Origin: Bacillota bacterium
GTDB lineage: Bacteria; Bacillota; Sulfobacillia; UBA8153
DNA length: 64,000 nt
Direction of reading: 5' to 3'
Assembly: GCA_040756655.1 (NCBI GenBank)
Contig: JBFLYN010000002.1
Location: 72,634 to 136,633 of the forward strand
Shown here: piece after piece, positions 9,835 through 63,482 of the stretch
Position numbering within the stretch: the stretch's first letter is position 1
Layout of the letters: the number at the start of each line of letters is the position of its first letter
Translations under genes and position numbers: made by a program
The notes under the pieces: generated by a model
What the model was told of the DNA's origin: nothing
Databases searched by the model: none
What the model saw: only the letters and a program-made list of their open reading frames with translations

Positions 9835-9843
9835 CGCAAAAGG

Positions 9844-9910: not shown

Positions 9911-9932
9911 CAGGCCCGCTTGAGCGGGCCTG
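9911..9932. terminator. Perfect 9-bp stem-loop (CAGGCCCGC ttga GCGGGCCTG) downstream of guaA
   Basis: The stem-loop lies between the guaA stop (9958) and the pur promoter. The flanking U-tract is weak on both strands. Confidence 0.5.
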
Positions 9933-9957
9933 ATTTCCGAACGTGTGTCCTAGCTGC

Positions 9958-11502: not shown

Positions 11503-11518
11503 CCCTCCTAAAGAGCAG

Positions 11519-12576: not shown

Positions 12577-12589
12577 GAACAACACCTCC

Positions 12590-14167: not shown

Positions 14168-14183
14168 TACTTCGGGGGATGGG

Positions 14184-17574: not shown

Positions 17575-17590
17575 AGTAGAAGCCTCCGTT

Positions 17591-18817: not shown

Positions 18818-18833
18818 GACATTCCCCCCCGCT

Positions 18834-19172
18834 CTACCGGAAACAGCCCAGCTGGCAAGCGCAGATCTTCAGCCCCAGTTCATCAGCAAGCCTACCCAAC
18901 TCCAGGGGAGGCACGTCCAGCTGGACAGCCAGCGCCAGCAGCACTGCGCAGGCGATCTTCCCATCCCGGGCCCGGGCCTTTAGTTCCTGGGCGGTCCCAG
19001 TAGGCGTTCGTCCGGCCTGTTTCAAGTGTAGCCCTCCCATGGAAAACGGGCACCCGGATGGCGACCGGATGCCCGTCAAAAGTCTGCGGGCACAGTCCCT
19101 CTCCTTTCCGAGCACGGGAGGCGCAGCGGTTTCCCGCAGCACCCTTGGCCGGACTGGTCCGGCTGCGGCCAA
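18834..19172 (-). CDS. Small Cys-containing hypothetical protein at the head of the Moco operon
   Basis: 112-aa ORF. The C-terminus reads GKIACAVLLALAVQLDVPPLELGRLADELGLKICACQLGCF. No family was recognised. Confidence 0.3.
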   Translation of the reverse strand: MAAAGPVRPRVLRETAAPPVLGKERDCARRLLTGIRSPSGCPFSMGGLHLKQAGRTPTGTAQELKARARDGKIACAVLLALAVQLDVPPLELGRLADELGLKICACQLGCFR

Positions 19173-46725: not shown

Positions 46726-46728
46726 GGT

Positions 46729-48718: not shown

Positions 48719-48743
48719 ACGTACATCCTTCCTCACGAAAAGA

Positions 48744-49020: not shown

Positions 49021-49287
49021 GACTATGGAGTTATCATGTCCATTTTACTCCACCCGGGCGGTGGTGGCAAGACCAACCCGGGCGGCAGCAAGACCATTGG
49101 GTCAGAAAAACCCGGGCGTACCCGGCCTTGGGGTGTTGGGCTCGCTGTTGCACCCGCTCACGTTCAGGCCATCGGGCTCTCCTTACCTCCTCTTAACCCC
49201 AAGGGTAGGTGGAAACGCCGGGGAAAACACCACTCTATGATGGCTGACACCGACGTCTTCTGCCCCCATACTGGTACAGGCGTTTGG

Positions 49288-50661
49288 TTAGCACACCACT
49301 TCCACGTTGTTCTCGGCCACCGTCACCACGGTGCCATCTAAGAGCTCCACGTCCACGGTGTAGAGGCTGATCTCTGTTTCTAAACGCACGCGACTGCCCA
49401 ACACCGACACCACCCGGCCGTACTGGCCAAAGTGAGTAAGACGGGTGATCCTCACCATAGCCCCGGGCACCAGTTCTCCGCCAGCGCGCGCTACCTGGAC
49501 ATCCGCGTCAGGTAGGTCCGGGGAGATCCCTTCCCCCAGGGGGATGATGACCTCCGGCCGGACGGCTCCCGCCCGGATCTGGGTGCGGCCGTTAACCGAC
49601 GCGATGGCACCCTCGTAGGCGCATAAGAGGTTATAGGCACGCTGGGACATGGGCATGACTCCGAATCCCCCGGTGATTACCACGGTGAGGGGGAGCTCTT
49701 CTTGGCCGGTGAGCCCTACCATGACCTCCCGGCCCAAAAGCTTTACCACGTCCAGGTGGTTGATCCCGCCCGAGATGAGCCCGGTGGCCTTGACCTCCAG
49801 GGCGCGGTTCATAGCCTCCAAGGACGCCAGGGCCCCACCGAATACCACGCATCCCTCGTGAGACGGCAGGATATCCGCGGCTTCCAGGACCCGGTCGGGG
49901 CCGGCAACTCGCGCCAAGGGCCCATAAGCCTCGCCACCCAGGCCGAATAAGCCTTCGATATAGGCCGCGGCAGTAGAGACCTCGGCGCTGTCGCCCGGGT
50001 TGACTGCGGTTACCTCGCCCCTGATGTACGCATCTACCTCGGTGGGACGGGCGGGTCGCACAATGGTGATGGCGCCGGTGCGGGTGCAGATCTTCTCCAC
50101 CACTCCACTGACGGGAGCATACGCGCAGTCCCACCCCAGGGGCGACGGTGCCGCGGCCAGGATCTGGCCTTGCTTTACCTCGTCTCCCTCACGGCAGTGA
50201 GCGTAGGTCCTCAACATGCGCGGCCAAACGTCCAGCTGCTTGGCCGCCGAGACCACGACCACCGGCCGGGCAGAGCGCCCGTCCTCCCGGATGAGTACGC
50301 GACCGTGTAGCCGGGAGATGAACTCCACGACTCCCGTGACCGGCGACTTAACCACGACGACTTCACCCAGGAAACCCTTGGTGTAACGGGCAATGATGTC
50401 ACCACCAGTGACCTGGTCGCCCACCTGCACGGTCATGACCAGGTCCATGAGATCGGGCCCGGCCTTTTCCCTGGGCACCATGAGCGCCCGCATCACGTCC
50501 ACAAAGTAAGGGGCGCCGGGCAGCAGGTCGGTGCGGGCCACTATGGTCGAAGGTTCTACTGTCGAACCGGCACTGACCAGCACGTCACCGGGCAATGGCA
50601 ACCGGCGCTGTCTGCTGACCCGGGCCTTCTCCATGGTCCTTACCATGAGGTTCTCGGTCAA
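49288..50661 (-). CDS. Uncharacterised partner protein A1, translationally coupled to the MutL/GlmL-like ATPase. It has repeated barrel-sandwich (lipoyl/biotinyl-like) motifs and a KOW-like C-terminus.
   Basis: 457 aa with no recognised family. Motifs: VQVGDQVTGGDIIARY, CREGDEVKQGQILAAAP, GGFGVMPMSQRAYNLL...RTQIRAGAVRPEVIIPLG. It is a paralog of 59221..60333. The start abuts the upstream stop. Confidence 0.5.
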   Translation of the reverse strand: MTENLMVRTMEKARVSRQRRLPLPGDVLVSAGSTVEPSTIVARTDLLPGAPYFVDVMRALMVPREKAGPDLMDLVMTVQVGDQVTGGDIIARYTKGFLGEVVVVKSPVTGVVEFISRLHGRVLIREDGRSARPVVVVSAAKQLDVWPRMLRTYAHCREGDEVKQGQILAAAPSPLGWDCAYAPVSGVVEKICTRTGAITIVRPARPTEVDAYIRGEVTAVNPGDSAEVSTAAAYIEGLFGLGGEAYGPLARVAGPDRVLEAADILPSHEGCVVFGGALASLEAMNRALEVKATGLISGGINHLDVVKLLGREVMVGLTGQEELPLTVVITGGFGVMPMSQRAYNLLCAYEGAIASVNGRTQIRAGAVRPEVIIPLGEGISPDLPDADVQVARAGGELVPGAMVRITRLTHFGQYGRVVSVLGSRVRLETEISLYTVDVELLDGTVVTVAENNVEVVC

Positions 50662-52470
50662 CTAGACCACCTCCCGGCCGGCATACTTCCGGAGAGCGCT
50701 TTCAGGGTAGGCATGCATGGCCAGCCACCAGTCCACGAGAGCTCGCCGTCGTAGAGCTGGATCCTTAGGTAGCTCCAGCGGGCGACCCCGTCCGTCCAGG
50801 ATGAGCCCTACCTCTCCCCCGCTCACGTTGACTCTGAACGGCTGTTTGCGACCCCTCCCGGCGTCCCACCCGGAGCGAGGTATCACCTCTAGTTCCATCT
50901 CTTCCCCGGGTCCTAGCGGGACCAGCGCCATTTGACCAAAGACCAGATCCAGCTCCTGTCCGGGCATAGACACCCGGGCGATGGACTGACCCGGTCGCCC
51001 GGTGCCCGCCGGGGCCAACACCGTCCCCAGGGGAATGAGGCATTCCTGCCAAAGGGTGTCCAGCGCCTCCTTGGGCCTGAGGTCCAATAGCGCGCCAAGC
51101 TGGGGCAACATGAACACGCTGTCTACGAAAAGCCGGCACACTCCCACCGGAGCCAGAGCGTCCAGGAGCAAGAGAGCGGCCTGGGCCCGGCGCGGGGCGT
51201 GGGAAAGCACCCCTCCGGAGCCGATCACGGCACCCACTTCCCTCATGTCCACCAGGGGTTGCCCGGTGGACGTCTGGTCGAATACCCGGTCTGCCGTCCT
51301 CCTCTGGCGCACGCCCTTGAGCGTCACCGCCAGGGAGTTGTGATGCTCAAATGAGAGCCTGAGTGCATCCCGGGCCGCGGCGTGCTCCAGCAAAAGCTCG
51401 TCCATGGTCTCTGGCAAGGTCGTGGGCCTGATCACCTTGTTGGAATACCAGTTCCGCAAATCTCCCTCGGAGATGTAAAAGGGCAGCCAGGACTGCACCC
51501 GGTCCAGACTGGCTTCCTTCAGGACATTGCCCAGGCTGTAGCTCATGCCCAGGTTGGCGCTGACGGTGCGGTGGAACCGGCCACTGGCCACCGAAAACAC
51601 ATCGGTGGTGGCGCCCCCGATATCCAGGGCCACCACGTCCGTATCCAGGTACGCTGCAACCTGCTGCACCATCTTGCCCACGGCCATGGGAGTGGGCTGC
51701 AAGTGCCCGCCGGTCCAGTCCAGCAGGGTCTGGTAGCCCGGGGCCTGCGCCATGACATGCTCCAGGAAGACCCGGTGGATCTCTTCCCGGGCAGGCTGCA
51801 ACACCTCTTTTTCCAGGGTGGGCCTGATGTTCTCCACAAAAGAAAGCAGCATGCAGTCTCCCAGGGTGGAGGCGACAAATTCCCGGGCGTGCACGTTTCC
51901 GGCATAGATTACCGGCAGCCGAAAACCGCTGCCGAACCTTGGTTCAGGACTGGCAGCAGCTAGGTATTCGGCCACGGCACCGACGTGACTGGGCAGGCCT
52001 TCGTCGGTTCCTCCCGTAAAGAGGATCATGTCGGGCCGCAGTTCTCGTACCCTCTGGATGCGCTCCACCACCAGGCGGGCATCATCCATGGAGATCACGT
52101 CCATGACGATGGCCCCGGCTCCGAGTGCCGCCCGCTGGGCACTTTCGGCGGTCAAGTTCCGGACTAGCCCGGTAACTAGCATCTGCAGGCCGCCTCCGGC
52201 CGACGATGTGGCCAAAAAGAGGTCGGCGCCCCGGGATGACGTGCCCGGCACCACGAGGCGGTCTCCATCCAGGAGTGGGCGACCGGTCTCGTTGGCAAGC
52301 CTGCTCATGGCGTTTTTCAGCCCGATCATCACGTCCAGAAAGGGTTTTTCCACGGTGGTTGGCGCCGCCGCGCGCCCGCGCAGCCGGTACCCCTGGCCAT
52401 GGTACTCCAGCAGGATGGCTTTGGTCGTAGTGCTCCCCACATCAGCGGCAAGGATCGTCCTGATCTCCAC
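50662..52470 (-). CDS. MutL/GlmL-family protein A2 (ASKHA-fold ATPase, hydantoinase-A-like; the family of the glutamate mutase component L), long 602-aa form
   Basis: The N-terminal phosphate-1 motif ILAADVGSTTTKAIL, VALDIGGATTDVFSV and VIGSGGVLSHAP are present. It is ~140 aa longer than canonical GlmL and is a paralog of 60336..62153. Confidence 0.7.
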   Translation of the reverse strand: MEIRTILAADVGSTTTKAILLEYHGQGYRLRGRAAAPTTVEKPFLDVMIGLKNAMSRLANETGRPLLDGDRLVVPGTSSRGADLFLATSSAGGGLQMLVTGLVRNLTAESAQRAALGAGAIVMDVISMDDARLVVERIQRVRELRPDMILFTGGTDEGLPSHVGAVAEYLAAASPEPRFGSGFRLPVIYAGNVHAREFVASTLGDCMLLSFVENIRPTLEKEVLQPAREEIHRVFLEHVMAQAPGYQTLLDWTGGHLQPTPMAVGKMVQQVAAYLDTDVVALDIGGATTDVFSVASGRFHRTVSANLGMSYSLGNVLKEASLDRVQSWLPFYISEGDLRNWYSNKVIRPTTLPETMDELLLEHAAARDALRLSFEHHNSLAVTLKGVRQRRTADRVFDQTSTGQPLVDMREVGAVIGSGGVLSHAPRRAQAALLLLDALAPVGVCRLFVDSVFMLPQLGALLDLRPKEALDTLWQECLIPLGTVLAPAGTGRPGQSIARVSMPGQELDLVFGQMALVPLGPGEEMELEVIPRSGWDAGRGRKQPFRVNVSGGEVGLILDGRGRPLELPKDPALRRRALVDWWLAMHAYPESALRKYAGREVV

Positions 52471-52488
52471 AGTCCCTCTCCTTCCGTC

Positions 52489-53745
52489 CTAGAATCCACC
52501 GCAGCGCCCGCACTGGGCGCAAGAGGGGTTGGGGTTGAGGTAGACCCGGCGGTTGTAAAGGAGCTGGTCCACGGTGGCCCGCCGGGTCAAGGTGACCGGG
52601 ATCCAGCTGCCCAGGACCAGCGCTCCAGCGGCCAGCCATGCCGACGCTGCCAGGGCCCCCACTTCCAGACGCAGGGCGGGCTCATTGTAACGGTTGATAC
52701 CCCAGATCAAGCCGGACGCCAGGACCCAACCACCAAACATCCCAAGAAACGACATGAACCCGGCCTCCGCCACCAAAAGAAGACCCAGCTCGGAAGATTC
52801 CAGTCCAAGTGCTTTGAGCGTCCCCAGGTACCGCTTTCTCCTAAGGAAAGAGAACAACATGAGGTTGAAGAGCCCGGCAGCTGCAAGCGTCACCACCAGC
52901 CCCATGACGGCCCTTACCGGCGATAGCGACCGGCGGGTCAAGCTCCTGGCCAGTTCCTGCGGTGTGTCGCGGGTGATAACCACCCCTTGGGCGAAGAGCC
53001 CGCCCAGCTTGGCGACGGCAGAGCGCAGCGTGTACCCCGGACCCAGCCAGCCTACGACTCCCCCGTGCACGGCCTCACCGAGAAGGGCCAGGGCGTCCAG
53101 GCTTACCAGGGGGCCAGATACTGGCGCCCCCGGAGAATGGTACAGGCCGGTGACCAGCACCCGGACTTCGTGCCACCCGGCCTGGCCCGGCACGCCCAGG
53201 GTAGTCACCATCCCGGGTATCATACCCCCGGCAGTATCCGGGAACACGGCGTGTCCGTGTACTCCGCCGGGCGGGCGGCCCACCGGCCAGCGGCCGCTCG
53301 TCAGGGAAAGCCCAGCCACCAGCCGGGAGTCAAAGCGCAGGCCCAGGGCGGTGTAGCGTCCGGAGGCCGTGTACACTTCCGCCACAGCCACCGGTTCCCA
53401 GTAGTCGATTTCCACCACCCGGAAGACCCGCCGGTCTATGTCGGCGGGCAGGGGCCCGGGCGCATAGGCCAGGAGGTCAGCCGGGAGGCCGAGGGGCAGG
53501 ACCTGGGCGGCCGCCTGCCGGGAGGCAGTAGCCCCCACCGCCGTGAGCAGGATATAAGCAGCCACGGCCACGCTCACCACCACGGCCAACAACGCGCTTT
53601 GCAGGCGGTGCCTGGCCACGTGACGGCGGGCCAACGGACACACCAGGCGTAGGGAAGCCCCTAGCTGTCGGCATAAGTTCCGTCTCCACAAGGCGCCAGA
53701 CTGACGGGAAAGCCACTGGCCCGCAGCAGTGGCCCAGCCCATCAT
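52489..53745 (-). CDS. MacB/FtsX-type ABC transporter permease (4 TM with a large extracytoplasmic loop) carrying a C-terminal Cys cluster
   Basis: C-terminal FtsX domain (LKALGLESSELGLLLVAEAGFMSF...). The tail is NPNPSCAQCGRCGGF. The N-terminal start is uncertain. Confidence 0.7.
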   Translation of the reverse strand: MMGWATAAGQWLSRQSGALWRRNLCRQLGASLRLVCPLARRHVARHRLQSALLAVVVSVAVAAYILLTAVGATASRQAAAQVLPLGLPADLLAYAPGPLPADIDRRVFRVVEIDYWEPVAVAEVYTASGRYTALGLRFDSRLVAGLSLTSGRWPVGRPPGGVHGHAVFPDTAGGMIPGMVTTLGVPGQAGWHEVRVLVTGLYHSPGAPVSGPLVSLDALALLGEAVHGGVVGWLGPGYTLRSAVAKLGGLFAQGVVITRDTPQELARSLTRRSLSPVRAVMGLVVTLAAAGLFNLMLFSFLRRKRYLGTLKALGLESSELGLLLVAEAGFMSFLGMFGGWVLASGLIWGINRYNEPALRLEVGALAASAWLAAGALVLGSWIPVTLTRRATVDQLLYNRRVYLNPNPSCAQCGRCGGF

Positions 53746-54446
53746 GGCTTCATCACCCCGGCCCGTTCCTCAACGCGCACCACCGTCCCGTCCAGCATGT
53801 GCACGACCTTGGTAGCATATTCCACGAAAGCCTGGTCATGGGAGGCGATCACGAAGGTCTGGCCGTGCCGGGAGTTGAACCGGGCGAATAGGTCCATAAC
53901 CTGACAGCCGCTTTGGGAGTCCAGGTTACCCGTGGGCTCATCAGCCAGCACCACAGCCGGGCGGTTGGCCAGCGCCCGGGCCACGGCCACTCGCTGCTGC
54001 TCGCCGCCGGACAGCTCATGGGGGGAGTGGGCGGCCCGATCGACCATGCCCACTTCGTCCAGGAGCTCCAGGGTACGGCGGGCCACTTCCCGGTCGTCAA
54101 CACCCGTGATGCGCATGGGCAAGGCGACGTTCTCCGCAGCAGTCAGGTCAGGGAGCAGGTTGAAAAACTGGAAGACAAACCCCACATGGGTCCTGCGCAT
54201 CCGGGCCAGCTGGTTTTCCGAAAGACGGCTAAACTTCCGGTTCTGCAGTATGACCTCCCCGTGGGTGGGGCGATCCAGCCCGCCCAGGAGGTTGAGCAAA
54301 GTGGTCTTGCCACATCCGGACGGGCCCATGATCACCACGAACTCGCCCGGCATCACCAACAGCCGGACGTCCTTAACCGCGTCCACCCCATCGCCCACCA
54401 AGAAACGCTTATGTAGCTCATTGCACCTGAGGATAGGTTCACTCAT
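53742..54446 (-). CDS. ABC transporter ATP-binding protein (LolD/MacB-ATPase type)
   Basis: 234 aa. GPSGCGKTT, LSGGEQQRVAVARAL and VLADEPTGNLD motifs are present. Confidence 0.85.
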   Translation of the reverse strand: MSEPILRCNELHKRFLVGDGVDAVKDVRLLVMPGEFVVIMGPSGCGKTTLLNLLGGLDRPTHGEVILQNRKFSRLSENQLARMRRTHVGFVFQFFNLLPDLTAAENVALPMRITGVDDREVARRTLELLDEVGMVDRAAHSPHELSGGEQQRVAVARALANRPAVVLADEPTGNLDSQSGCQVMDLFARFNSRHGQTFVIASHDQAFVEYATKVVHMLDGTVVRVEERAGVMKP

Positions 54447-55824
54447 GACGTAGCACCTCCCGGGCTGTGGAACCGGAAGCTAGAACCGCTGGAATTACCC
54501 CAGCAGCCAGGGCCGTCACTGTGCTCAGGCCCGTGACCAGGCCCGCTGTATAGAGAGTGCTCAGGCCGGCCCGGGCCAAGGTCACGTCCGAGGCCAGGTA
54601 TACCAGGACGTAGAAAGCGCGCACCAGGGCAAACCCCATAATAGAGCCGAGGGTGGCAAGTACCACGGTCTCTCCCAGCACCATGAGGATGATCTCACCG
54701 CCTGATGCCCCGATGGCCTTGAGGATGCCGATTTCCCGCCTGCGCTGGGTGACCAGGATGAGCATGTTGGTAGTCACCAGCATACCAGCCAAGGCAAAAG
54801 AAAGGTAGATGAAGGCCCGGGTGGCATCCCGGGTCACCGGCATTTGCCCGGTGTGGCTCCACGATGCCTGGACCAGCTGGGGGACCGTCAGCACCCGTGC
54901 CCAGGGCAGTTCCGCCTGCAGGCTGGCGGCTACATCCCGGGCCAGGAACATACTCCGCACCCTGACCCCCAGCTGGCGGACGTACCGGAAGCCTCCGGTT
55001 CCGCCCACGGAGGCAAAGATCCTCTCCAGGGTAGCGGCGGGCACGAAAATCTGCTCAGAATGGAGATACCTAGGCTCCTCCAGCGAGTCCATGTCAAGCC
55101 CCCGGGCAAGGAGGTCCGTGGCGCTGGCCACAAACTCGTAGGTCCCCCTGACTTCAAGGGTGAAGTGATGGCGCCGGGTGTAATCGTACACAGTTCCCCC
55201 GGGGCCGTGAGCCACCACGCTGGGAACCTCCACAACCAGGGCTGTGACCCGGCTAAGGTCAGGCCAACCCGGGGGAATCTCGCGGTTGACCAGGCAGACC
55301 ATGGCACCATCGTCATCCGGGGTCAGAGCGTGAAGGTTCCAGGCAGCCGCATCCACAAGGGTGTGGCGTCCCCGCAGCACCGCCGGAACCAGGGCGGTAG
55401 TTCCCGGCACTATGAAGAAAGCAGGCATGGCCAGGAAGGGTTCTACAGCGATGACCTCCGGGTGCTCTAACCCACCCGGCAGATGGTGGAGGTCCATGGT
55501 GCGCACGTCTGCAGGAGCCAGGTACCCCTGGTGGGAGAAGGCGGGGAAGAACGTGAGCAAGTCGCTTTCATGGCCTTCTAGTCCCATCATCCAAGAAAGC
55601 TCTTCTCCACTGCTTGGGCCGGGGAGGACAGCCGGCTCGGTGAAGATGAGGATGTCGGCTCCAACCAGCCGCCGGTGCTCCCAGAAAGCTTCTCGCGGAT
55701 AGCCGCTTTCCATGGAAACACTCCCGGTCAGTATAGCCGCAGCCACGGCCATCCCTACCAGGGCCAGCAGGCTCCGGTTGAGGTTGCGACGGGCATTGCT
55801 CAGCGCCATCCTGAGAAACAGCAT
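54439..55824 (-). CDS. MacB/FtsX-type ABC transporter permease
   Basis: 461 aa. N-terminal TM, a ~280-aa extracytoplasmic domain, then a C-terminal FtsX 3-TM bundle (ILKAIGASGGEIILMVLGETVVLA). Confidence 0.7.
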   Translation of the reverse strand: MLFLRMALSNARRNLNRSLLALVGMAVAAAILTGSVSMESGYPREAFWEHRRLVGADILIFTEPAVLPGPSSGEELSWMMGLEGHESDLLTFFPAFSHQGYLAPADVRTMDLHHLPGGLEHPEVIAVEPFLAMPAFFIVPGTTALVPAVLRGRHTLVDAAAWNLHALTPDDDGAMVCLVNREIPPGWPDLSRVTALVVEVPSVVAHGPGGTVYDYTRRHHFTLEVRGTYEFVASATDLLARGLDMDSLEEPRYLHSEQIFVPAATLERIFASVGGTGGFRYVRQLGVRVRSMFLARDVAASLQAELPWARVLTVPQLVQASWSHTGQMPVTRDATRAFIYLSFALAGMLVTTNMLILVTQRRREIGILKAIGASGGEIILMVLGETVVLATLGSIMGFALVRAFYVLVYLASDVTLARAGLSTLYTAGLVTGLSTVTALAAGVIPAVLASGSTAREVLRHE

Positions 55825-55889
55825 CTTCTTCCCCCATTTCCACCAGCCGGAAGCGGAGTTCCGGGGCTTTATGGGTTTGGCTGGGTATT

Positions 55890-56576
55890 CTAGGCGGGCA
55901 GGCTGTCCACCAGCCTCCCGTCCAGCATGCGGACAACGCGCTTGGCGTAGGGGTGGAAGGCTTCGTTGTGGGACACAACCACGAAGGTCTGTCCCAGGGT
56001 GCAGTTGAAATTGGCGAAAAGCCGGGCGATCTCCTGCGCGTTACGAGAATCCAGGTTTCCCGTGGGTTCGTCAGCCAACACCACCCGGGGTTGATTGGCC
56101 AATGCCCGGGCTATGGCCACCCGCTGCTGTTCGCCACCGGAAAGCTGCAGCGGCCTGTGATGCATCCGGTCACCTAACCCCACCATCTCCAAAAGCTCCT
56201 GGGCCCGCCGTTCCATCTGGCGCCGGGAAAACCCGGAAAAGCGCAGCGGCAGGCTGACGTTTTCCGTGGCAGTAAGGTGAGGTATCAGGTTGAAAAACTG
56301 GAATACAAAGCCGACCTTGGCCCTTCTCAGCATGGCCAGGCCACTTTCACTAAGACGGCTGAACCGGTGACCGTCCAAGACCACCTCGCCGCTGGTCGGG
56401 CGGTCCAGCCCTCCTAGGAGACTGAGGAGCGTGCTCTTGCCGCTACCAGACGGGCCCGTCAACACCACGAAGTCACCGCCATCCACATCCAAGCTGACGT
56501 CGTGTACCGCTTGGACGGTCTGGCCCAAGAAAAAGGTCTTGGTCAGCTCAAAGGCACTGAGAATGGGCTCGTTCAT
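55890..56576 (-). CDS. ABC transporter ATP-binding protein (LolD/MacB-ATPase type)
   Basis: Start MNEPILSAFELTKTF. GPSGSGKST, LSGGEQQRVAIARAL and VLADEPTGNLD motifs are present. Confidence 0.85.
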   Translation of the reverse strand: MNEPILSAFELTKTFFLGQTVQAVHDVSLDVDGGDFVVLTGPSGSGKSTLLSLLGGLDRPTSGEVVLDGHRFSRLSESGLAMLRRAKVGFVFQFFNLIPHLTATENVSLPLRFSGFSRRQMERRAQELLEMVGLGDRMHHRPLQLSGGEQQRVAIARALANQPRVVLADEPTGNLDSRNAQEIARLFANFNCTLGQTFVVVSHNEAFHPYAKRVVRMLDGRLVDSLPA

Positions 56577-56602
56577 GGTATTCCTCCTGCCCAAAACAGT
56601 TT

Positions 56603-58186
56603 TCAACTGGAATTCTGGCGGTACCTCCTGGGAGTTACACCCTCGGATTTCTTGAACACCCGGCAGAAATAGTTAAGGTCTCGGTATCCCACCTGGCGGG
56701 ATATGGCCGTTACAGATAGCTGAGTGGTGGCAAGGAGTTGTTTGGCACGAGCTATGCGGATGGAAGTCAGCTTCTCCACAAATGTATGGCCGGTCTCGTC
56801 TTTGAAAATGTGGCTAAAGTAGTAAGGGCTCAAGTGGACCACGGAGGCGATTTCCTCAAGGGTGATGTCACGCGCATATTCCCGCTCAAGATACCGCAGG
56901 GCTTTTTTGACCAAGAGCAGGTTACGGGCATTGCGGTTCTTCTTCACCGACCCGGCCAGGGCCTGGGCACCTTGGGTTAGCAGTTCGCCTGCGTAGGCTG
57001 GGTCGCCCGCCTCCAGGCCCGCCTCGACAGCACGTGCCCGGTGCAGGTCAACAGCCTCCTTGTCTGCACCGCCATCGCTTCCGGCCTTGACCATGGCCAG
57101 GAGCAGCTGGAGTACTGCCAGTTTCGCCACGGTATGTCCTGAAGACAACAGCCGGACCACCCCAGGCTGAAGGGACTCGGATACCTCCTGGGCCCGTTCT
57201 GGGTCTCCCAGCCTGATGGTGCGTAAAAGCTCCTCCACGGCCTCAGCTGGCAGCGTTTCGGCATCGTCATCTACTTCGATGTCATCCACGTGCAACACCT
57301 GGCGCGGAGGGCAATAAGACCGGGCTCTCACGGCTTCTCGGTATGCGCCGGACAGGTCTGGAGGATGACGGCTGATCCGGCCCGTCCCGGCGTTCACCTC
57401 AAACCCCCGGGCCCGCATGCCTTGGACCAGTCTCGTCCCCAAGTCCAGCAGGTACTTGCGACCCCGGGCGGGATCCGCATCGGGCACCACTACCACCACC
57501 GCCACGCTGCCGCCGCCGGCGTGAGCGGCCAAGGCAACCCCTTGGGGCAGGAGCTCCCGCACTGCCTCCAAGGCCTGCTGGCGCCCGAGCTGGCGTTCTG
57601 CCTCAGTGCCCGGGAGGGTCTCGGTCCTTCCCACGGACAGGACGGCCGAAGGGATGCCGGCAAGGCCCAGGAAATGAGCGCGGTCCCGGGCGGCGGCCAT
57701 ATCCAGGCTCTGGCCGCTGATGAGTTCGGACACATACTCCATGCCGATGATGGGCAGGGCTGTTTCCAGTTGCCTTCGCAATTCCAGTTCCCGCTGGCGC
57801 CTGGCGTCGTCCCGGATTATGGCCGCCAGGGCATCCCGGAGAGCAGCTACCAGTTCGGACGGGTGCACCGGCTTGAGCAAGTAGTCTACCGCACCCAGCT
57901 TGACAGCTTCCTGGGCAAAGCGAAACTCATCGTAGGCCGTGAGGATGATGACCTTGACTTCCGGGCGTGCCGCCAGGATCCGCCGGGAAGCCTCCAAACC
58001 GTTGAGGACCGGCATGTTCAAGTCCATAATGACCACGGCCACGTCCTGCTCCAGAACGCTTTCCACCGCCTCGGCACCGTTGCCTGCTTCCAGGATCTCT
58101 AGCTCTTCCCCCAGGTGCAACTGGACTGTACGGGCCAAGAGCAGTCGCTGCAGGGCTTCATCGTCAACGAGCAGCACTTTTCTCAT
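56603..58186 (-). CDS. Response regulator, CheY receiver plus AraC-type HTH (YesN-like)
   Basis: Receiver domain with the phosphoacceptor in VVIMDLNMP. The C-terminal AraC HTH is ...YFSHIFKDETGHTFVEKLTSIRIARAKQLL. Confidence 0.85.
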   Translation of the reverse strand: MRKVLLVDDEALQRLLLARTVQLHLGEELEILEAGNGAEAVESVLEQDVAVVIMDLNMPVLNGLEASRRILAARPEVKVIILTAYDEFRFAQEAVKLGAVDYLLKPVHPSELVAALRDALAAIIRDDARRQRELELRRQLETALPIIGMEYVSELISGQSLDMAAARDRAHFLGLAGIPSAVLSVGRTETLPGTEAERQLGRQQALEAVRELLPQGVALAAHAGGGSVAVVVVVPDADPARGRKYLLDLGTRLVQGMRARGFEVNAGTGRISRHPPDLSGAYREAVRARSYCPPRQVLHVDDIEVDDDAETLPAEAVEELLRTIRLGDPERAQEVSESLQPGVVRLLSSGHTVAKLAVLQLLLAMVKAGSDGGADKEAVDLHRARAVEAGLEAGDPAYAGELLTQGAQALAGSVKKNRNARNLLLVKKALRYLEREYARDITLEEIASVVHLSPYYFSHIFKDETGHTFVEKLTSIRIARAKQLLATTQLSVTAISRQVGYRDLNYFCRVFKKSEGVTPRRYRQNSS

Positions 58187-59231
58187 GGTCACCCTCCCCA
58201 TCGTGGGTGGTAAAAGGGATGCATATGGTCACCCGGGTTCCCTGCCCCGGAGCTGACTGGATATCCAGACCATACTCCTGGCCAAACTGGTGCTGGAGAC
58301 GCCTGTGCACGTTGCTCACTCCCAGCCCGGTAGTATGCCCTTGTCCGGAACCGGCATCGCTCATGGACCGGATGGTGGATAGACGGGCCGGGGGGATGCC
58401 TACCCCATCGTCGGTGATGGTAACGTATACCTCTGCTTCGCTCAGCCGGGCATCGATCACGATAAGCCCCCGATCGCGGGACTCAAAACCGTGGATGATC
58501 GCGTTTTCGACCAGCGGCTGGAGCGTGAGCAGAGGGATCTTAGTCCTGAGCACTTCGGCGGGTACGTCGAGCCTGGTACTCACGCGTTTGCCGAACCTGG
58601 CCTCCTGGATGGTCAGGTAATCCTGGACGTGGTGAAGCTCATCTTCTAGGCTGACCATTTCGCCGATGCGCCGGAGGGAATACCGGAGGAGCCTGGCCAG
58701 AGCGTGGACCAGCCCTTGGGTGGCCATGGCACCGTCGAGCATGGCCTGGGCGGCGATGGTGGTAAGGGTGTTGAAGAGGAAGTGGGGGTTGATCTGGGAC
58801 TGCAATGCTCTAAGTTCCATTACCCTCAAGGCCTCTTCTAGTTCAGCGTTGATCTTCAGTTCCTCGATGAGGCGGGCCTGCACTTCCCCACTGTACTGCC
58901 TCCACCAAGTGGCGGTGGCCCGGGCGGTCACAAAGTCGGCCGCCACCCGCACCCGCAGGGCGCTAGAGCCGACGTGGTCTTCACGGGGACAGCAGGAAAC
59001 GTAAGCCAAGGTCACTCCTTCCACCGACACCGGCGCAGCCGTCACCGGCACCTCGAGGCACTCTTCGCCCTTCCCTTTCACGAGGACGTGCTGGTGGGGG
59101 TCGCGCAGGCAAAGGCAGCAACCGGCCAAAGGGCCAAGTTCGCCGAAGGCCTTCTCGATCGTATCCAGATCTACCAGGCTCCTCAGGTCTACCGTCTTTT
59201 CTACCAAAGGATGTGTCACCTCACCGGGCAT
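58164..59231 (-). CDS. Soluble (no TM) YesM/LytS-type histidine kinase (His_kinase PF06580 plus HATPase) with an N-terminal cytoplasmic sensor domain
   Basis: QINPHFLFNTL is the H-box of the LytS/YesM class. The ATPase domain is ...LVENAIIHGF...DDGVGI...GLGVSNV. The N-terminal ~140 aa have Cys pairs (CCLC, SCC) and no hydrophobic segments. Confidence 0.75.
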   Translation of the reverse strand: MPGEVTHPLVEKTVDLRSLVDLDTIEKAFGELGPLAGCCLCLRDPHQHVLVKGKGEECLEVPVTAAPVSVEGVTLAYVSCCPREDHVGSSALRVRVAADFVTARATATWWRQYSGEVQARLIEELKINAELEEALRVMELRALQSQINPHFLFNTLTTIAAQAMLDGAMATQGLVHALARLLRYSLRRIGEMVSLEDELHHVQDYLTIQEARFGKRVSTRLDVPAEVLRTKIPLLTLQPLVENAIIHGFESRDRGLIVIDARLSEAEVYVTITDDGVGIPPARLSTIRSMSDAGSGQGHTTGLGVSNVHRRLQHQFGQEYGLDIQSAPGQGTRVTICIPFTTHDGEGDHEKSAAR

Positions 59232-60333
59232 AAAGCTCCAGGTTTGAGCGGGGCACCATCACCAGCTCTCCACTATCCAACCGGACCGCGGCCACCTGTA
59301 CTTGGGAGCCTGTCTCCAGGGTCACCCTCTGTAACGGGAGGTCCACAACGGTACCGATAGCCCCAAAATGGCGGGGGCTGATGATGCGGACGGGGGTACC
59401 CACGAAAACCGTCGCAGGTCCCGGCAGCGGGGGGGCATGGTCCTGGGCAAGGTCCAGGGGGATCACTGCCTCGGGCCTAACTACCCCGGCCCGGACCTGG
59501 GTGGCTCCACTCACTGCCGCCTGCCGGCCGTCCAGCTCCTGGACCAGGCGGTAGGTGCGCTGGCTCATGGGGATGGCTCCAAAACCCTCAGTCAGAACGG
59601 TTATCAAGGTGGTATCTTCGTGTCCCGTCACACCGGTGCCGATGACGCGGCCGGCTATGCGATCTAAGTCGCGCTTGTGCAACCCCCCGGTGATCACTGC
59701 CACTGCTCCCACTTCGCGCACCCGGGTCAGGGCTTCGTAATCGTCCCACACGCCCCCGACCAGTATCTTCCCTGAGTGCTGCGGGCCAATGTCCCGGCTC
59801 CGTATGGGGGCCGTGCGTTCGCCTACCAGGCAAAGCTCGCCCCAGCCTTCCCCACCGACGCCGAAGATCCCCTGGACCAGGGCAGCCCCAAGGCGGATAG
59901 AAACTAATTCACCCGGTATTACCCGGACCACCTCCCCCGGGACATAGGCCCTCAGCGCCACCGGCAAGCTCCTGATGGTCACCCTACCGGTGGCTGGAAA
60001 GAGGCGCTCCAGGGTACCGGCCATGGGCGCCCGGCATTCCCGGTTGAAAAGGCCCAGGGTCGAACGGTACCGGGCTATGACTTCACCGGCCAAGACCCGG
60101 TCCCCTACCTTCCGGAGCAAGGCGTCCGGAACCAGCACCGATGGGATCTCCAGTATCCTGGCCACATCCACAGTCTCCAGGTAGCCCCGGGGGTTGAGCA
60201 GGGCAACCACGGTATCGTGCTGGACTCGCTGGCCCGGGTATACGCAGATCTCGCCTGAGGAGGGCAGGCGCCGTTGTTTGATCAGATTTCGCCCGGGGCT
60301 GATCTCCAGTCCCGGCAGGTGGATTTCACCCAT
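59221..60333 (-). CDS. Uncharacterised partner protein B1 (paralog of 49288..50661), translationally coupled to MutL-like B2
   Basis: 370 aa. Shares EGFGAIPMSQRTYRLV...ATQVRAGVVRPEAVIPL and the N-terminal RRLP...G motif with A1. The ATG lies 2 nt after the upstream TAG. Confidence 0.5.
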   Translation of the reverse strand: MGEIHLPGLEISPGRNLIKQRRLPSSGEICVYPGQRVQHDTVVALLNPRGYLETVDVARILEIPSVLVPDALLRKVGDRVLAGEVIARYRSTLGLFNRECRAPMAGTLERLFPATGRVTIRSLPVALRAYVPGEVVRVIPGELVSIRLGAALVQGIFGVGGEGWGELCLVGERTAPIRSRDIGPQHSGKILVGGVWDDYEALTRVREVGAVAVITGGLHKRDLDRIAGRVIGTGVTGHEDTTLITVLTEGFGAIPMSQRTYRLVQELDGRQAAVSGATQVRAGVVRPEAVIPLDLAQDHAPPLPGPATVFVGTPVRIISPRHFGAIGTVVDLPLQRVTLETGSQVQVAAVRLDSGELVMVPRSNLELYAR

Positions 60334-60335
60334 GC

Positions 60336-62153
60336 CTACACCTCACTGGGCATGTCGAGTTCTGTGGCCCCCATGGCCTTCATCCATTCCCATACCGCCC
60401 GGCGCCGCTCGAGCTCCTGGCCTGGAAAACGGATGGGGCGGCCGCGTGCATCCAGTATGACGCCCACGCAGCCGCCCCAGACTTCGGCCTCCACCGTAAC
60501 CCCACGGCCACCGCCCAGGTCCAGGCCGGGACCGGGAGTTGCCGTGATGACGGCCTTTTCCCCGGCTCCCAGGGGTACCCGCAAGATGGTGCCGGGCATA
60601 GCAGCCACCAGGCACGGCGCCCGACCAGGATACTCCAGCTTCGCGGTCACGGCGGGGTGGTCCGGGCGCATGCGACCGGACCCGGCCGGGGCAATGCAGG
60701 GACCCAGTGGTACCAGGCAGTCGTGATATAGAAGATCCCGGGCAGCCCTCGGGTGCAAGTGCTCAAGAAGCCCGATGTGAGGCATCATGAAGATGCTGTC
60801 CACGAAAAGCTGGGTAATCCCGCCCGGCTGGATGGCGTCCAGGAGCATCAAGGCAGCTTGTTCCCGCCGAGGAGCGTGTGATAGCACCCCGCCCGAACCG
60901 ACTATCATGTCAATGTGCATAGGGTCAACCAGGGGCCGGCCGCTGGGGGTCTGGTCGAACACATCTCCCATCGTCCTCTGCTGTTTGACCCCCTTGAGAC
61001 TGGTAGTGAGTTCACAGTGCTGCTGGAATGAAAGGCGTATGGTCTCACGGGCCACAGCCTGCTCAAGCAGGAGTTCGTGCCAAGTCTCAGGCACGGTCAC
61101 CGGCCGTACCATCTTGTTGGCGATGGCATCTTCGAAGGCCATCTGGTTAACGGCAAAGGGCAGCCACCGGTTTACCGCCGCAAATCCTGCCTCGGCCAGC
61201 ACATTGGTAATGCTGTAAGACATGCCCAGGTTGGCGCTGACGGTGCGGTACAGGTTGCCCTCGAGGACCGAGAACACGTCGGTGGTCGCGCCACCCACGT
61301 CGACGCCCAATACGCTACACCCGTGATCTTGGGCCAGGATCTGCATGACCCTCCCCACGGCCGCCGGCGTGGGCATGACCCGCTTCCCCACCCAGCTGGC
61401 CAAGCGGGCGTAGTTGGGGGCGTGAGCCATGACATGGTTCAGGAAGATCTCTTGGATCTTTTGACTGGCCGGAAGTACGTTTTCCTGTTCCATGCTGGGC
61501 CTGAGGTTATCAACAGCTGTCAGGTCGGAGAACTTGCCCAAGACATCGGATATGTAGGTACGTGCATCGCGGTTGCCGGCAAAGACCACCGGCATCTTGA
61601 CCTGGTCGCCAAAGCGGGGGCTGGCCCCGGCCAGAAAGAGCAATTCACCCATGCGAACTACGTGGGAGATGTTCCCGCCATCCACGCCGCCGGAAAGCAA
61701 GATGATGTCTGGACGCATGCGGCGGATCCGGTCCACTCGCTCATGGACCTGGCGACCATCGTCGATGGCCAAAACCTCGGTGACCACGGCACCGGCACCT
61801 AAGGCCGCACGCTGCGCGCTCTTAGCCGTGAGGTCCTTCATCACGCCGGCCACCATCATCTGCAGCCCGCCTCCGGCGCTGGAGGTGGCCAGGGCCAGGT
61901 CCACACCGGAATGGGCATCTGCGGGCACCACCAGGCCGTCGTCGCCCAGGAGCCTGCGACCGGTGCTATCCTGCAAAAGCTGGACCGCCGCCCGTATGCC
62001 GACGGTCACATCTTCAAACGGGGCCTCCACGGTGGTGGGCGCATCGGCCCGGTCCACCAGCCGATAGCCACCGTCCCGCTTGGCCACGAGAATGGCCTTG
62101 GTGGTGGTACTGCCGCAGTCTATGGCCAGGATCAGGTTGATGTCGGCCGACAC
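60336..62153 (-). CDS. MutL/GlmL-family protein B2 (ASKHA-fold, hydantoinase-A-like), 605 aa
   Basis: ILAIDCGSTTTKAIL, LGVDVGGATTDVFSV and IVGSGGVLSHAPRREQAALMLLD are present. It is collinear with A2 over its full length. Confidence 0.7.
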   Translation of the reverse strand: MSADINLILAIDCGSTTTKAILVAKRDGGYRLVDRADAPTTVEAPFEDVTVGIRAAVQLLQDSTGRRLLGDDGLVVPADAHSGVDLALATSSAGGGLQMMVAGVMKDLTAKSAQRAALGAGAVVTEVLAIDDGRQVHERVDRIRRMRPDIILLSGGVDGGNISHVVRMGELLFLAGASPRFGDQVKMPVVFAGNRDARTYISDVLGKFSDLTAVDNLRPSMEQENVLPASQKIQEIFLNHVMAHAPNYARLASWVGKRVMPTPAAVGRVMQILAQDHGCSVLGVDVGGATTDVFSVLEGNLYRTVSANLGMSYSITNVLAEAGFAAVNRWLPFAVNQMAFEDAIANKMVRPVTVPETWHELLLEQAVARETIRLSFQQHCELTTSLKGVKQQRTMGDVFDQTPSGRPLVDPMHIDMIVGSGGVLSHAPRREQAALMLLDAIQPGGITQLFVDSIFMMPHIGLLEHLHPRAARDLLYHDCLVPLGPCIAPAGSGRMRPDHPAVTAKLEYPGRAPCLVAAMPGTILRVPLGAGEKAVITATPGPGLDLGGGRGVTVEAEVWGGCVGVILDARGRPIRFPGQELERRRAVWEWMKAMGATELDMPSEV

Positions 62154-62252
62154 AAACCCACCTCCCGGCAGCTGGTACTGAATATTTCATCACCCGAAGG
62201 TAGAGCACCTTTTGGACTTTAGTGCCAGATATTGGACGATCTTGCTGGAGGG

Positions 62253-63482
62253 TCAAAGGAGGCTCTTCTCGACTTCCCCGTTTTTCAGCACCAGCTTGAT
62301 ATTGGACGCCTCCTGCAGGCACGTTACATCCACCAGGGGGTCACCGTCCACGACGATCAGGTCGGCATACTTGCCGGGTTCCAGAGTGCCCAGCCTATCC
62401 CCCAGCTGGATGGCATCCGCCGCCACCCGGGTGGCGGCCTGGATGGCCTCCAAGGGCGAAAAGCCAAGACCCACCAGGAGCTCGAGCTCAAGGGCATTGC
62501 TTCCGTGAGGCACTTGTGGTCCACCGGCAAAGTCCGTGCCCACAATCACGCGCACCCCGGCCTTCTTGGCCTTCATGATGTTGGCATGGTGAGTGTCCAG
62601 TATCTGCCTGGCCTTGACCACGGCCCAGGCAGGGGTGGACGCTGCAAACTCGGGCAGGAGCATGCGATGAAGAATGGACAGGGTGGGCACCAGGAAGGCG
62701 CCTTTCATCAAGAACAGCTCAATGCTCTCGTCGTCCATGAGGGTACCATGTTCGATGGTCCTGATCCCGGCCTTTAGGGCCGTGTTCACACCTGCTGCCG
62801 CATGGGCGTGGGCAGCCACGTGAGTGCCCACCCGCTCTGCCTCTTCAACTATGGCCAAAAGTTCCCCGGTGCTAAACTCGGCGTGCTTGGGGGTGTCTGC
62901 CGCGGACCCCAGGACTCCCCCGGTGGCCATGACCTTGAGGAAATCTGCGCCCTCTCTGAGCTGCTCCCGGGCGGCTTTCCGGCAGTCATCTTCACCGTCA
63001 CAGATGCGGGAGAGAAATCCCAGCTGGCGGGACTGCTCCAGGGGCAGGGTGCGCAGGTCGCCGTGTCCCCCGGTCTGGCTCAGGGACAGGGCGGCCGAGA
63101 GGATGCGTGGCCCCCGGATCTCCCCCTCAAGGATGACCCTCTTGATGAGATGGCCCATGCCGCCCGCATCCCGGACAGTGGTGAAGCCGGCGTTGATGAG
63201 GGATGCACAGTCGGCCACCACCCTGGCGGCCCGCACGGCCACCGGATCGTGGGCCCACTGGGCAAGGTTGAGAGAGCGCGTGCCGATGAGGTGCACGTGA
63301 GCATCGATGAGCCCAGGCATTACCGTCCTGTCGCCGGCATCGATCACTCGGTATCCGGGAGGAGGCGGGGTCTCTCTGGGCCCTACATGAGAGATGATAC
63401 CACCGTCTATGAGTACTACACCCGCCAACGGTTCGCTGCCGGTTCCATCCAAGATCCTGCCCAGCACTGCCAGTCCAGCCAT
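62253..63482 (-). CDS. Metal-dependent amidohydrolase (Amidohydro_1 superfamily), first gene of the 11-gene operon
   Basis: 409 aa. PGLIDAHVHL (HxH metal ligands), ...KVMATGGV... and ...HAHAAAG... are typical of imidazolonepropionase/Xaa-Pro-type amidohydrolases. Confidence 0.75.
   Translation of the reverse strand: MAGLAVLGRILDGTGSEPLAGVVLIDGGIISHVGPRETPPPPGYRVIDAGDRTVMPGLIDAHVHLIGTRSLNLAQWAHDPVAVRAARVVADCASLINAGFTTVRDAGGMGHLIKRVILEGEIRGPRILSAALSLSQTGGHGDLRTLPLEQSRQLGFLSRICDGEDDCRKAAREQLREGADFLKVMATGGVLGSAADTPKHAEFSTGELLAIVEEAERVGTHVAAHAHAAAGVNTALKAGIRTIEHGTLMDDESIELFLMKGAFLVPTLSILHRMLLPEFAASTPAWAVVKARQILDTHHANIMKAKKAGVRVIVGTDFAGGPQVPHGSNALELELLVGLGFSPLEAIQAATRVAADAIQLGDRLGTLEPGKYADLIVVDGDPLVDVTCLQEASNIKLVLKNGEVEKSLL

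Follow-up and report, generated by a model that had tools for sequence, protein, structure and literature searches.

Two Paralogous Pairs of a Long MutL-Like ATPase and a Dedicated Partner Protein around a Two-Component System and an FtsX-Type Transporter in an Operon of a Bacillota Bacterium

Introduction

The GlmL/MutL family was first seen in glutamate mutase operons, and to our knowledge no function has been assigned to it since. Other ASKHA proteins, namely DdrA/PduG, EutA and RACo, are established reactivases, and such a role is suspected for GlmL as well. A different use of the fold is found in FtsA-FtsEX and PilM-PilN, where ASKHA proteins are docked on membrane machines via short cytoplasmic peptides. 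Here, an eleven-gene operon was analyzed in a stretch of 64,000 nucleotides (nt) from a Bacillota bacterium (contig JBFLYN010000002.1, positions 72,634 to 136,633), which is referred to as the window. The operon, located on the minus strand from 63482 to 49288, encoded two long MutL-like ATPases (MutL-long), each followed by a second conserved protein (the partner), and these two pairs bracketed a two-component system and an ATP-binding cassette (ABC) transporter of the FtsX type.

The classical GlmL/MutL proteins (PF13941; NF040745, NF040744, TIGR01319) and MutL-long belonged to the same Pfam family, which covered residues 8–478, and carried the same ASKHA motifs. However, MutL-long was about 140 amino acids longer, with a C-terminal beta domain and a helix, had no mutase nearby, and was accompanied by a partner, adjacent or fused in most loci, and by membrane neighbours that have not been reported for GlmL. 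In contrast to DdrAB/PduGH, EutA, RACo and HgdC, the swivel domain was placed on a separate polypeptide, between a barrel-sandwich and a KOW domain. The inserted swivel, the small beta subunit and the client B12 dehydratase that characterize the diol dehydratase reactivases were not found; a DdrB-like subunit was absent, no client enzyme gene lay in the neighbourhood, and an informal reading of the sequences gave no Fe-S cluster motifs of the HgdC-type activators. A relationship of MutL-long to FtsA or PilM could not be detected by sequence, and it differs from them in an extra flavodoxin-like insert, a C-terminal domain and the partner; no division or pilus genes were located near the operon, and any docking would here be hypothetical.

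Type VII ABC systems include MacAB-TolC, LolCDE, FtsEX, YknXYZ and YbbAP (PMC5985334, PMC12646458). The transporter of the window shared with them the FtsX permeases with four transmembrane (TM) segments, the large loop after TM1 and the LolD/FtsE/MacB-like ATPases, and its two unlike permeases resembled LolCE. It differed in having two ATPase genes, loops unmatched in Pfam and barrel-sandwich partners that were cytoplasmic by prediction, whereas the operon carried no gene for a signal-peptide-bearing membrane-fusion, adaptor or hydrolase partner. An association with MutL-long and its partner has not been described for any type VII system. The two-component system was similar to YesM/YesN, having His_kinase and HATPase_c domains in the kinase and a receiver (REC) domain, a GGDEF_2-like domain and an AraC-type helix-turn-helix (HTH) in the regulator, but the kinase was devoid of TM segments and HAMP, possessed a cysteine-containing N-terminal domain of about 135 residues and was translationally coupled to the short partner. 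The full-text literature on the family identifiers and names gave nothing relevant, and no published description of the system was found, in agreement with the preliminary description of this DNA, which knew of no system of such composition. The composite matches no described system, and this applies to the general cluster of MutL-long, partner and membrane proteins as well as to the FtsX variant of the present lineage.

Results

MutL-Long and Its Partner as One Unit

The first MutL-long protein (MutL1, 605 amino acids, 60336..62153, minus strand) and its paralogue (MutL2, 602 amino acids, 50662..52470, minus strand) matched PF13941 with 403.2 and 373.6 bits, well above the gathering threshold of 27 bits, and both spanned model positions 1–449/450. 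They were 51% identical across 593 residues. The best NCBIfam models were GlmL and a GlmL-related ornithine-degradation protein, and all three such models stayed under their cut-offs: the GlmL equivalog NF040745 gave 231.9 and 215.4 bits (cut-off 475), and the subfamily TIGR01319 gave 172.3 and 167.0 bits (cut-off 204.05). A classical GlmL was rejected because of these scores, the greater length and the missing mutase. The hydantoinase models were also below threshold (Hydantoinase_A 18.4 and 20.7 bits against 22.9; Hydant_A_N 22.1 against 25.2), and Hydantoinase_B was matched by no operon protein in Pfam. Thus, an annotated HyuA/HyuB system, which the preliminary description had given as an example of a refuting finding, was rejected because of the sub-threshold scores and the lack of HyuB.

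The architecture of MutL1 consisted of a MutL/GlmL-superfamily ASKHA fold, a flavodoxin-like insert with a further likeness to the B12-binding-like SCHIC domain, and the C-terminal beta domain with a helix (about residues 480–594), for which Pfam gave no match. No relative of solved structure was obtained when the PDB was searched by sequence with MutL1, and hydropathy showed no TM-like segment in either ATPase. Since the phosphate-1, phosphate-2 and adenosine motifs of the ASKHA fold were invariant in the MutL-long alignment, the ATPase is probably active.

Proteins of the long form proved to be widespread. At least 8000 protein clusters from many phyla were matched. Most of them bore the name 'glutamate mutase L' or 'TIGR01319 family', and homologues from Armatimonadota were 54% identical. 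Therefore, the earlier statement that the family is known only inside glutamate mutase operons fails for the long form. The absence of a mutase from the operon, also claimed before, was borne out: neither a mutase nor a HyuB gene was present in or beside it, and a scan that covered the operon, its flanking genes and, from the rest of the window, ten more large open reading frames (ORFs) but not every small one gave no mutase domain. Methylmalonyl-CoA-mutase-type genes occurred near the pair in a single surveyed lineage (L005/L006/L078), on the opposite strand.

The partner was equally widespread. A pattern scan with one genome per species recovered at least 581 bacterial and archaeal species that have it; the bacterial carriers included Zixibacteria, WOR-3, Poribacteria, Eisenbacteria, Planctomycetota, Ignavibacteria, Armatimonadota and Bacillota, and the archaeal ones Bathyarchaeia, Culexarchaeia, Methanomethylicia and Nitrososphaeria. 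An exhaustive profile search yielded 1289 partner clusters (50% identity) at E <= 1e-30, everywhere named 'hypothetical' or 'KOW domain-containing', and a metagenome scan with the long partner gave a single distant locus. The neighbourhoods were surveyed in the best 80 species-level loci, 67 of which had at least 2 kb of upstream sequence. By an automatic criterion, 50 of these 67 loci had MutL-long as the immediate upstream neighbour of the partner in the same orientation. Another three escaped this criterion, two of them through ORF miscalls and the third, L085, because its ATPase gene stands about 1.9 kb ahead of the partner. Moreover, two fusion proteins (P0267 of 995 and P0343 of 1003 amino acids) carried MutL-long at the N-terminus and the partner at the C-terminus, which is the order of the genes, and their MutL-long part was 48–50% identical to MutL1.

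Rough neighbour-joining trees separated the proteins associated with long partners from those associated with short partners to a large extent, more cleanly in the partner tree. MutL2 of the window clustered with MutL proteins that accompany long partners, while the first module of the window and its relative in locus L096 formed a divergent branch in both trees. The two modules are old paralogues. A broad congruence of the trees is expected for two proteins working as a complex. Based on adjacency, fusions and the roughly congruent trees, it was concluded that MutL-long and the partner are a single functional unit and very probably a physical complex; the ATPase and partner had been described earlier as a welded pair, and this view was confirmed. 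Both window pairs carried every invariant column of the unit. The preliminary description had further proposed a mirror duplication. The paralogous pairs do bracket other genes, but they have the same orientation and internal order, and the arrangement is direct (tandem) and not mirrored.

Domains of the Partner Protein

The short partner (370 amino acids, 59221..60333, minus strand) had no match in Pfam or NCBIfam. The long partner (457 amino acids, 49288..50661, minus strand) showed the same architecture with an extra barrel-sandwich repeat of about 80 residues near the N-terminus, which was seen as an insert at about columns 150–230 of the partner alignment. The two partners shared 38% identity across 326 residues, and the N-terminal repeat gave a second match. 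The long partner also matched RnfC_N, NqrA_N and Biotin_lipoyl weakly, and a faint BSH_YknX match was among the partner matches. A profile search revealed no PDB relative by sequence; the earlier characterization of the second protein as uncharacterized holds, as it lacks a Pfam or NCBIfam family and such a relative.

The predicted model of the partner (predicted local distance difference test score of 85.8) comprised, from the N- to the C-terminus, a barrel-sandwich hybrid, a swiveling beta/beta/alpha domain and a KOW/SH3-like domain. In the model, the N-terminal domain resembled those of NqrA, RnfC and membrane-fusion proteins. The fold matches of the swivel domain were Enzyme I and rifampin phosphotransferase (9.7), the AcnX small subunit (9.3), RraA (8.8) and DdrA (8.2). 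The motifs GIFGxGGE, TEGFG and TQxRAGxxRPE were invariant in 32 partner sequences from many phyla. The partner is thus a new combination of known folds that has no family model.

No TM or signal-like segment was detected by hydropathy in either partner, and both are predicted to be cytoplasmic. An exported adaptor of the MacA/YknX kind was rejected because a signal peptide and TM segments were lacking and the barrel-sandwich matches were faint. A lipoyl or biotinyl carrier was rejected as well, since the hairpin lysine was not conserved and, by a reading of the alignment, was arginine or absent in the window proteins. The 32-sequence alignment contained no invariant histidine, which excludes a phosphohistidine relay of the type used by the mobile domains of phosphoenolpyruvate-utilizing enzymes.

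Usual Neighbours of the Pair

The neighbouring ORFs of the survey loci were clustered, and antisense artefacts were set aside. A recurrent set was obtained in both bacteria and archaea, with clusters c13 and c6 upstream of the pair and c8, c9, c10 and c11 downstream or upstream. Among the 80 loci, c8–c11 were present in 25–32, c6 in 34 and c13 in 16. Cluster c8 was DUF6754 (390.9 bits), c13 (about 157 amino acids) gave a weak bacterial-PH match, and c6 had about 134 amino acids. The recurrent neighbours were mostly predicted membrane proteins and, besides DUF6754, had no Pfam or NCBIfam assignment; NCBIfam searches with c6, c9, c10 and c11 gave nothing, as did PDB sequence searches with the c8 and c10 profiles. 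The extended cluster c13, c6, MutL-long, partner and c8–c11 was found in L010, L025 and L071 (about 7.3–16 kb) and in many other loci. In 8 of the 80 loci, and also in L005/L006, a PorV/PorQ-family outer-membrane protein (135.9 bits, cut-off 90) was encoded after the pair or after the complete cluster, which was a feature of some bacterial lineages.

Other Bacillota carried the two modules next to each other, and c6 usually stood between or behind them (L001/L002, L013, L014, L042, L048 and L065). In a separate observation, eight Eisenbacteria-like loci (L010, L025, L037, L050, L053, L069, L071 and L079) were read as having genes for glycine-cleavage T and H and two P proteins directly ahead of the cluster in the same direction, which may be lineage synteny only.

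The FtsX-Type Transporter

The transporter was encoded by ABC ATPase 1 (238 amino acids, or 228 with the start of the gene caller; 55890..56606; ABC_tran 126 bits), FtsX permease 1 (461 amino acids; 54439..55824; FtsX PF02687 46.4 bits at residues 337–450), ABC ATPase 2 (234 amino acids; 53742..54446; ABC_tran 121 bits) and FtsX permease 2 (418 amino acids; 52489..53745; PF02687 50.2 bits), all on the minus strand. The best NCBIfam models of the ATPases were LolD, FtsE and MacB, all scoring below the cut-offs. Hydropathy predicted four TM segments in each permease, with a TM1–TM2 loop of about 295 residues in FtsX1 and about 200 in FtsX2; neither loop was matched in Pfam. The four-TM FtsX permeases, the large loop and the cognate ATPases are those of a type VII ABC transporter. 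A membrane-fusion adaptor as in MacAB or YknXYZ was missing, as the only barrel-sandwich proteins of the operon were the partners, which are without TM or signal segments.

The two ATPases were 62% identical, while FtsX2 showed similarity to FtsX1 in the TM2–TM3 region only (E 0.029). The likeness of the ATPases, the barely alignable permeases and the permease-ATPase-permease order in the L088 locus suggest that the transporter is a LolCDE-like heteromer.

The C-terminal tail of FtsX2 (...RRVYxxPNPSCxxCGRCGGF, about 52492–52572, minus strand) was invariant among the orthologues, including one that was 37% identical overall, and in the fetched loci no genes had the motif other than FtsX genes that immediately precede MutL-long. 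The tail would be cytoplasmic by the usual FtsX topology and is a candidate for a docking peptide or for a metal site.

Parts of the operon recurred elsewhere. The order ABC-FtsX-ABC-FtsX-MutL-long-partner was found in L087 and L090/L091 (72–73% identity of the long partner). In L087, an unrelated divergent gene stood upstream and other genes downstream, and neither the two-component system nor the first module adjoined the transporter half. The L088/L089 locus (long partner 53% identical) had the order TPR protein-FtsX-ABC-FtsX-MutL-long-partner, without the first ATPase gene. As a side observation, a 635-residue MalT-like TPR protein (L088:2931-4838) occupied the place that in the window is taken by the first module, the two-component system and the first ATPase; it is possibly an alternative regulator.

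The slot beside MutL and the long partner was filled in different ways. The gene that ended immediately ahead of this MutL was an FtsX gene in the window and in loci L087, L088 and L090. In L014 and L065, the c8–c11 genes ended about 90 nt ahead of it, and in L092/L098 two genes with ABC_membrane and ABC_tran domains directly followed the long partner. Homology of FtsX2 to c8–c11, which would make such a slot trivial, was not detected (hhalign probabilities <1%). Judging from the sequences, three unrelated membrane modules adjoin the same cytoplasmic pair.

The Two-Component System

The histidine kinase (355 amino acids, 58164..59231, minus strand) was of the LytS/YesM type (His_kinase PF06580 92.7 bits, HATPase_c 57.5) and, by hydropathy, soluble, with no TM-like segment. 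Its N-terminal domain of about 135 residues (58827–59231, minus strand) had no Pfam match even at E <= 1. The cysteines of this domain (CxCLRD, EC, C-P) were common to the homologue in L096, and the domain may be a cytoplasmic redox, metal or protein-binding sensor. The YesN-type regulator (532 amino acids, or 527 with the start of the gene caller; 56603..58201, minus strand) contained a receiver domain (Response_reg 92.6 bits), a GGDEF_2-like middle part (33 bits) and an AraC-type HTH (HTH_18 78.8, HTH_AraC 70 bits). The features of a YesM/YesN system were all present except for the usual membrane-anchored sensor part. A Bce-type resistance module was rejected on account of the four-TM (not ten-TM) permeases, the TM-less kinase and the AraC- rather than OmpR-type regulator.

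The only close relative of MutL1 (70% identity) was encoded in L096, a contig of 4.6 kb with the order MutL-short partner-kinase. The kinase gene there overlapped the partner stop by 14 nt, and its product was 50% identical to the N-terminal half of the window kinase (E 9e-44).

In three further loci, namely L029 (9959-11790) from a metagenome-assembled genome (MAG) of Chthonomonas sp., and L039 (359-4139) and L046 (899-4918) from MAGs of unclassified bacteria, an OmpR-type regulator was located directly after a short partner, which here had no adjacent MutL. The two genes overlapped by 4 nt in L029 and L039, and the regulator was followed in L039 and L046 by genes for a cytoplasmic PAS-HisKA kinase and for a TauE/SafE exporter. 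A tie of the short partner to signalling was therefore observed twice, each time with another kind of two-component system. Since the two-component families differ (OmpR/HisKA against YesMN), the whole block does not share ancestry with that of the window.

Operon Boundaries and Surroundings

The coordinates and junctions agreed with the eleven-gene minus-strand operon of overlapping or near-abutting genes that had been reported, the gene calls were upheld, and profile searches agreed with all domain assignments. Contigs from runs SRR22388167 and SRR29635773 had identical proteins and the same gene order; as two independent sequencing runs gave this order, it is not an assembly artefact. Six of the ten junctions were overlaps or gaps of at most 2 nt. 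From the 5' end, the first module was preceded by the amidohydrolase gene with a gap of 99 nt, MutL1 was separated from the short partner by 2 nt, and the kinase start overlapped the partner stop by 11 nt. The kinase overlapped the regulator, which in turn overlapped ABC ATPase 1 by 4 nt, or left a gap of 26 nt with the start of the gene caller. Within the transporter, a gap of 65 nt between ABC ATPase 1 and FtsX1 was followed by overlaps of 8 nt (FtsX1 and ABC ATPase 2) and 4 nt (ABC ATPase 2 and FtsX2). MutL2 began 18 nt after FtsX2 and abutted the long partner at 0 nt. GGAGG-like sites preceded most of the start codons.

The first gene of the operon encoded an amidohydrolase (409 amino acids, 62253..63482, minus strand; Amidohydro_1 191 bits), whose best NCBIfam model was Xaa-Pro dipeptidase NF051886 (310.7 bits, under the cut-off of 500). 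A divergent LMWPc gene, present also in L088 and being the upstream neighbour in L096, took its place in the latter locus, and in L094 the gene upstream of the amidohydrolase was divergent. We infer that the amidohydrolase is a lineage-specific passenger outside the conserved cassette. The full eleven-gene order has so far been found in the source organism only. Hence, the functional cassette proposed earlier in place of chance adjacency stood in part: the sub-cassettes recurred (L087, L090 and L088; L096), but the amidohydrolase and the full order were not conserved.

At the 3' end, a terminator-like hairpin, identified by consensus match only, was located at 49112..49125 (minus strand; CCGGGTACGCCCGG then GTTTTTCTGA) and is the probable end of the operon. 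Consensus matches to promoters and terminators inside the operon numbered 16 against 10.1 +/- 3.0 in shuffled sequence, and such matches were used at the 3' boundary only. After the hairpin, a promoter-like consensus match (49070-49042, minus strand) headed the next unit, which consisted of a full-length cobalamin riboswitch RF00174 (48857-49033, minus strand, 116.6 bits) and, directly downstream of the operon behind this riboswitch, a BtuF/BtuC/BtuD-like ABC uptake unit (45937-48736, minus strand). The riboswitch-BtuFCD unit was not at the corresponding position in L087, L088 and L090.

Farther away in the window, the segment 25375-39737 encoded an M24/creatinase-type peptidase, ADP-ribosylglycohydrolase, enoyl-CoA hydratase, 3-hydroxyacyl-CoA dehydrogenase, thiolase, FdhD and formate-tetrahydrofolate ligase. 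This block was syntenic with the flanks of the MutL modules in L087, L088 and L090, which makes these MAGs relatives of the window organism. A molybdenum-cofactor riboswitch RF01055 (19085-19224, minus strand, 75.2 bits) lay upstream of a molybdopterin cluster (12079-19172, minus strand) with MoeA and a MoeA-PBP fusion, as well as MoaA, MoaC and a MogA-like protein by reading of translations; an Amidohydro_3 gene (12590-14167) was embedded in it. A purine biosynthesis and salvage cluster occupied 1200-12067 (minus strand), where PurF-like and PurL-like proteins were upheld by Pfam, and PurB, PurE, a xanthine/uracil permease, GuaA and Hpt were recognized by reading of translations. An ORF at 20129-21052 (minus strand) had an AllH domain (oxamate carbamoyltransferase subunit, 61.9 bits), and a short ORF beside it read like a carbamate kinase fragment.

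Discussion

We tentatively propose that the operon consists of a regulatory half and an effector half around a two-subunit cytoplasmic ATPase coupled to interchangeable membrane modules. The pair would work on or with a membrane machine, because the unit is usually encoded with uncharacterized, mostly membrane proteins, and the main reason, which is drawn from gene order, is that the three unrelated membrane modules adjoin the pair. In the Bacillota lineage of the window, the slot beside the long-partner copy would be filled by a non-homologous heteromeric type VII ABC system made of two permeases that have diverged and two ATPases that arose by a recent duplication. MutL2 and the long partner may dock at the cytoplasmic face of the permease pair with the FtsX2 tail as the candidate docking peptide, and nucleotide-driven movement of the ATPase and the swivel domain could gate or assist the export or mechanotransmission cycle of the transporter. 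MutL1 and the short partner, translationally coupled to the soluble kinase, would serve as its sensory input; this was proposed because the kinase is without a membrane sensor and its N-terminus matches no family, having cysteines common to L096. The AraC-type regulator would control the operon. The sequences show the anatomy of the operon, the paralogy of its modules, the unity of the pair, its wide distribution, its conserved neighbours and the lack of homology among the membrane modules; whether the pair touches the permease, which way the signal runs and what any substrate may be belong to the inferred part of the model.

Several observations weigh against this proposal. The link between the pair and membrane proteins is one of adjacency only. 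FtsX or kinase homologues of the window were present in none of the 80 survey loci (phmmer, E <= 1e-3), where ABC ATPases were sporadic and several kb away, and the tie to FtsX/MacB transporters and YesMN-like systems, whose constancy the preliminary description had suggested testing, is thereby not a general one. The FtsX association is limited to one lineage (three related MAG lineages), and the two-component association to two lineages, such genes being common. The window has no homologue of c6, c8–c11 or c13, so that a replacement of these by the transporter is read from position only. Loci of Bacillota with both modules and no transporter nearby were found (L001/L002, L013, L042, L048 and L093), and in about 14 surveyed loci the partner was without an adjacent MutL. 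The recurrent peptidase and amidohydrolase neighbours would suit a metabolic role.

A more general form of the proposal, in which MutL-long and the partner are the cytoplasmic ATPase of an ancient, hitherto unrecognized modular membrane machine common to bacteria and archaea, is possible, if somewhat doubtful. DUF6754 and c9–c11 would be the default membrane part (with c6, c13 and sometimes a PorV-like protein), type VII or type IV ABC transporters would be swapped in within Bacillota, and the paralogue would act as the kinase input.

The strongest rival is that the pair converts a small molecule in an ATP-dependent reaction, much as hydantoinase, oxoprolinase and acetone carboxylase do, or acts as a kinase whose swivel domain is mobile; the transporters would then move the substrate or product, and the two-component system would sense the metabolite. 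We consider it unlikely. The weak similarity to Hydantoinase_A and Hydant_A_N would fit it, but the scores of 18–22 were under the Pfam cut-offs of 22.9–25.2 and no HyuB-type gene was among the called genes of the Pfam-annotated neighbourhoods. A kinase-like fold and the swivel also speak for it. The swivel has its closest counterparts in mobile phosphocarrier domains, namely those of Enzyme I, rifampin phosphotransferase and PPDK, and in the AcnX and isopropylmalate isomerase small subunits; however, it has no invariant histidine. Amidohydrolases or peptidases were encoded near the pair in the window, L001, L087, L088, L090, L020, L064 and L065, the exporter types adjoining the pair are varied, and the identity of 54% between phyla would suit a conserved active site. 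Against this, the metabolic neighbours vary by locus, and only the membrane proteins are widely conserved.

A juxtaposition by chance or for transcription only, in which a two-component and FtsX export or resistance module was inserted between copies of an unrelated housekeeping pair, was judged to be still less probable. Modules consisting of a two-component system and an ABC transporter are common in Bacillota. The counts of zero in the 80 loci, the transporter half of L087 without an adjoining two-component system or first module, and the adjacent modules of other Bacillota, with neither transporter nor two-component system, would all agree with such an event. As these Bacillota have the modules adjacent without a transporter, the bracketing itself is a lineage-specific insertion or rearrangement and not an ancestral design. 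The junctions at the module borders argue the other way: the FtsX-MutL-long-partner order was kept down to 53% identity of the partner and 37% of FtsX2 in different wider contexts, the borders are tight (the 11-nt overlap of partner and kinase and the 18-nt gap between FtsX2 and MutL2), and the partner-kinase overlap was seen again in L096. The conservation of these two junctions makes juxtaposition less likely, and the soluble kinase with a YesN-type regulator means that a Bce-type resistance module was not what was inserted.

Finally, the pair could be a reactivase or chaperone for a cobalamin-dependent enzyme with a meaningful adjacent riboswitch-BtuFCD unit, but this is quite improbable: the Pfam MutL membership, the best NCBIfam models (GlmL and its ornithine-degradation relative), the SCHIC-like insert, the DdrA and RACo fold matches and the cobalamin riboswitch with BtuF/C/D-like genes immediately downstream are outweighed by scores under the GlmL equivalog and subfamily cut-offs, the absence of a DdrB-like small subunit and of any B12-dependent enzyme gene in the operon or in the scanned and gene-called parts of the window, methylmalonyl-CoA-mutase genes limited to one lineage and the opposite strand, a BtuFCD unit headed by a promoter-like site and a riboswitch of its own and missing from that position in L087, L088 and L090, and conserved neighbours that are membrane proteins.

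The analysis provides several handles for experiments, namely the candidate docking peptide of FtsX2, the two paralogous pairs with apparently separate roles and the soluble kinase with an unclassified sensor domain. The label 'glutamate mutase L', which has been put on proteins without a nearby mutase, is widespread in the databases and needs correcting. The dominant form of the GlmL/MutL family is a longer protein with a dedicated and highly conserved partner. A sizeable unstudied system is hereby defined, which is present in several archaeal lineages and in many bacterial phyla, most of them uncultivated. If the proposed coupling to membrane modules is true, a GlmL-type ASKHA ATPase would for the first time be seen to drive or gate a transport or envelope system, and the GlmL family would gain a mechanistic context.

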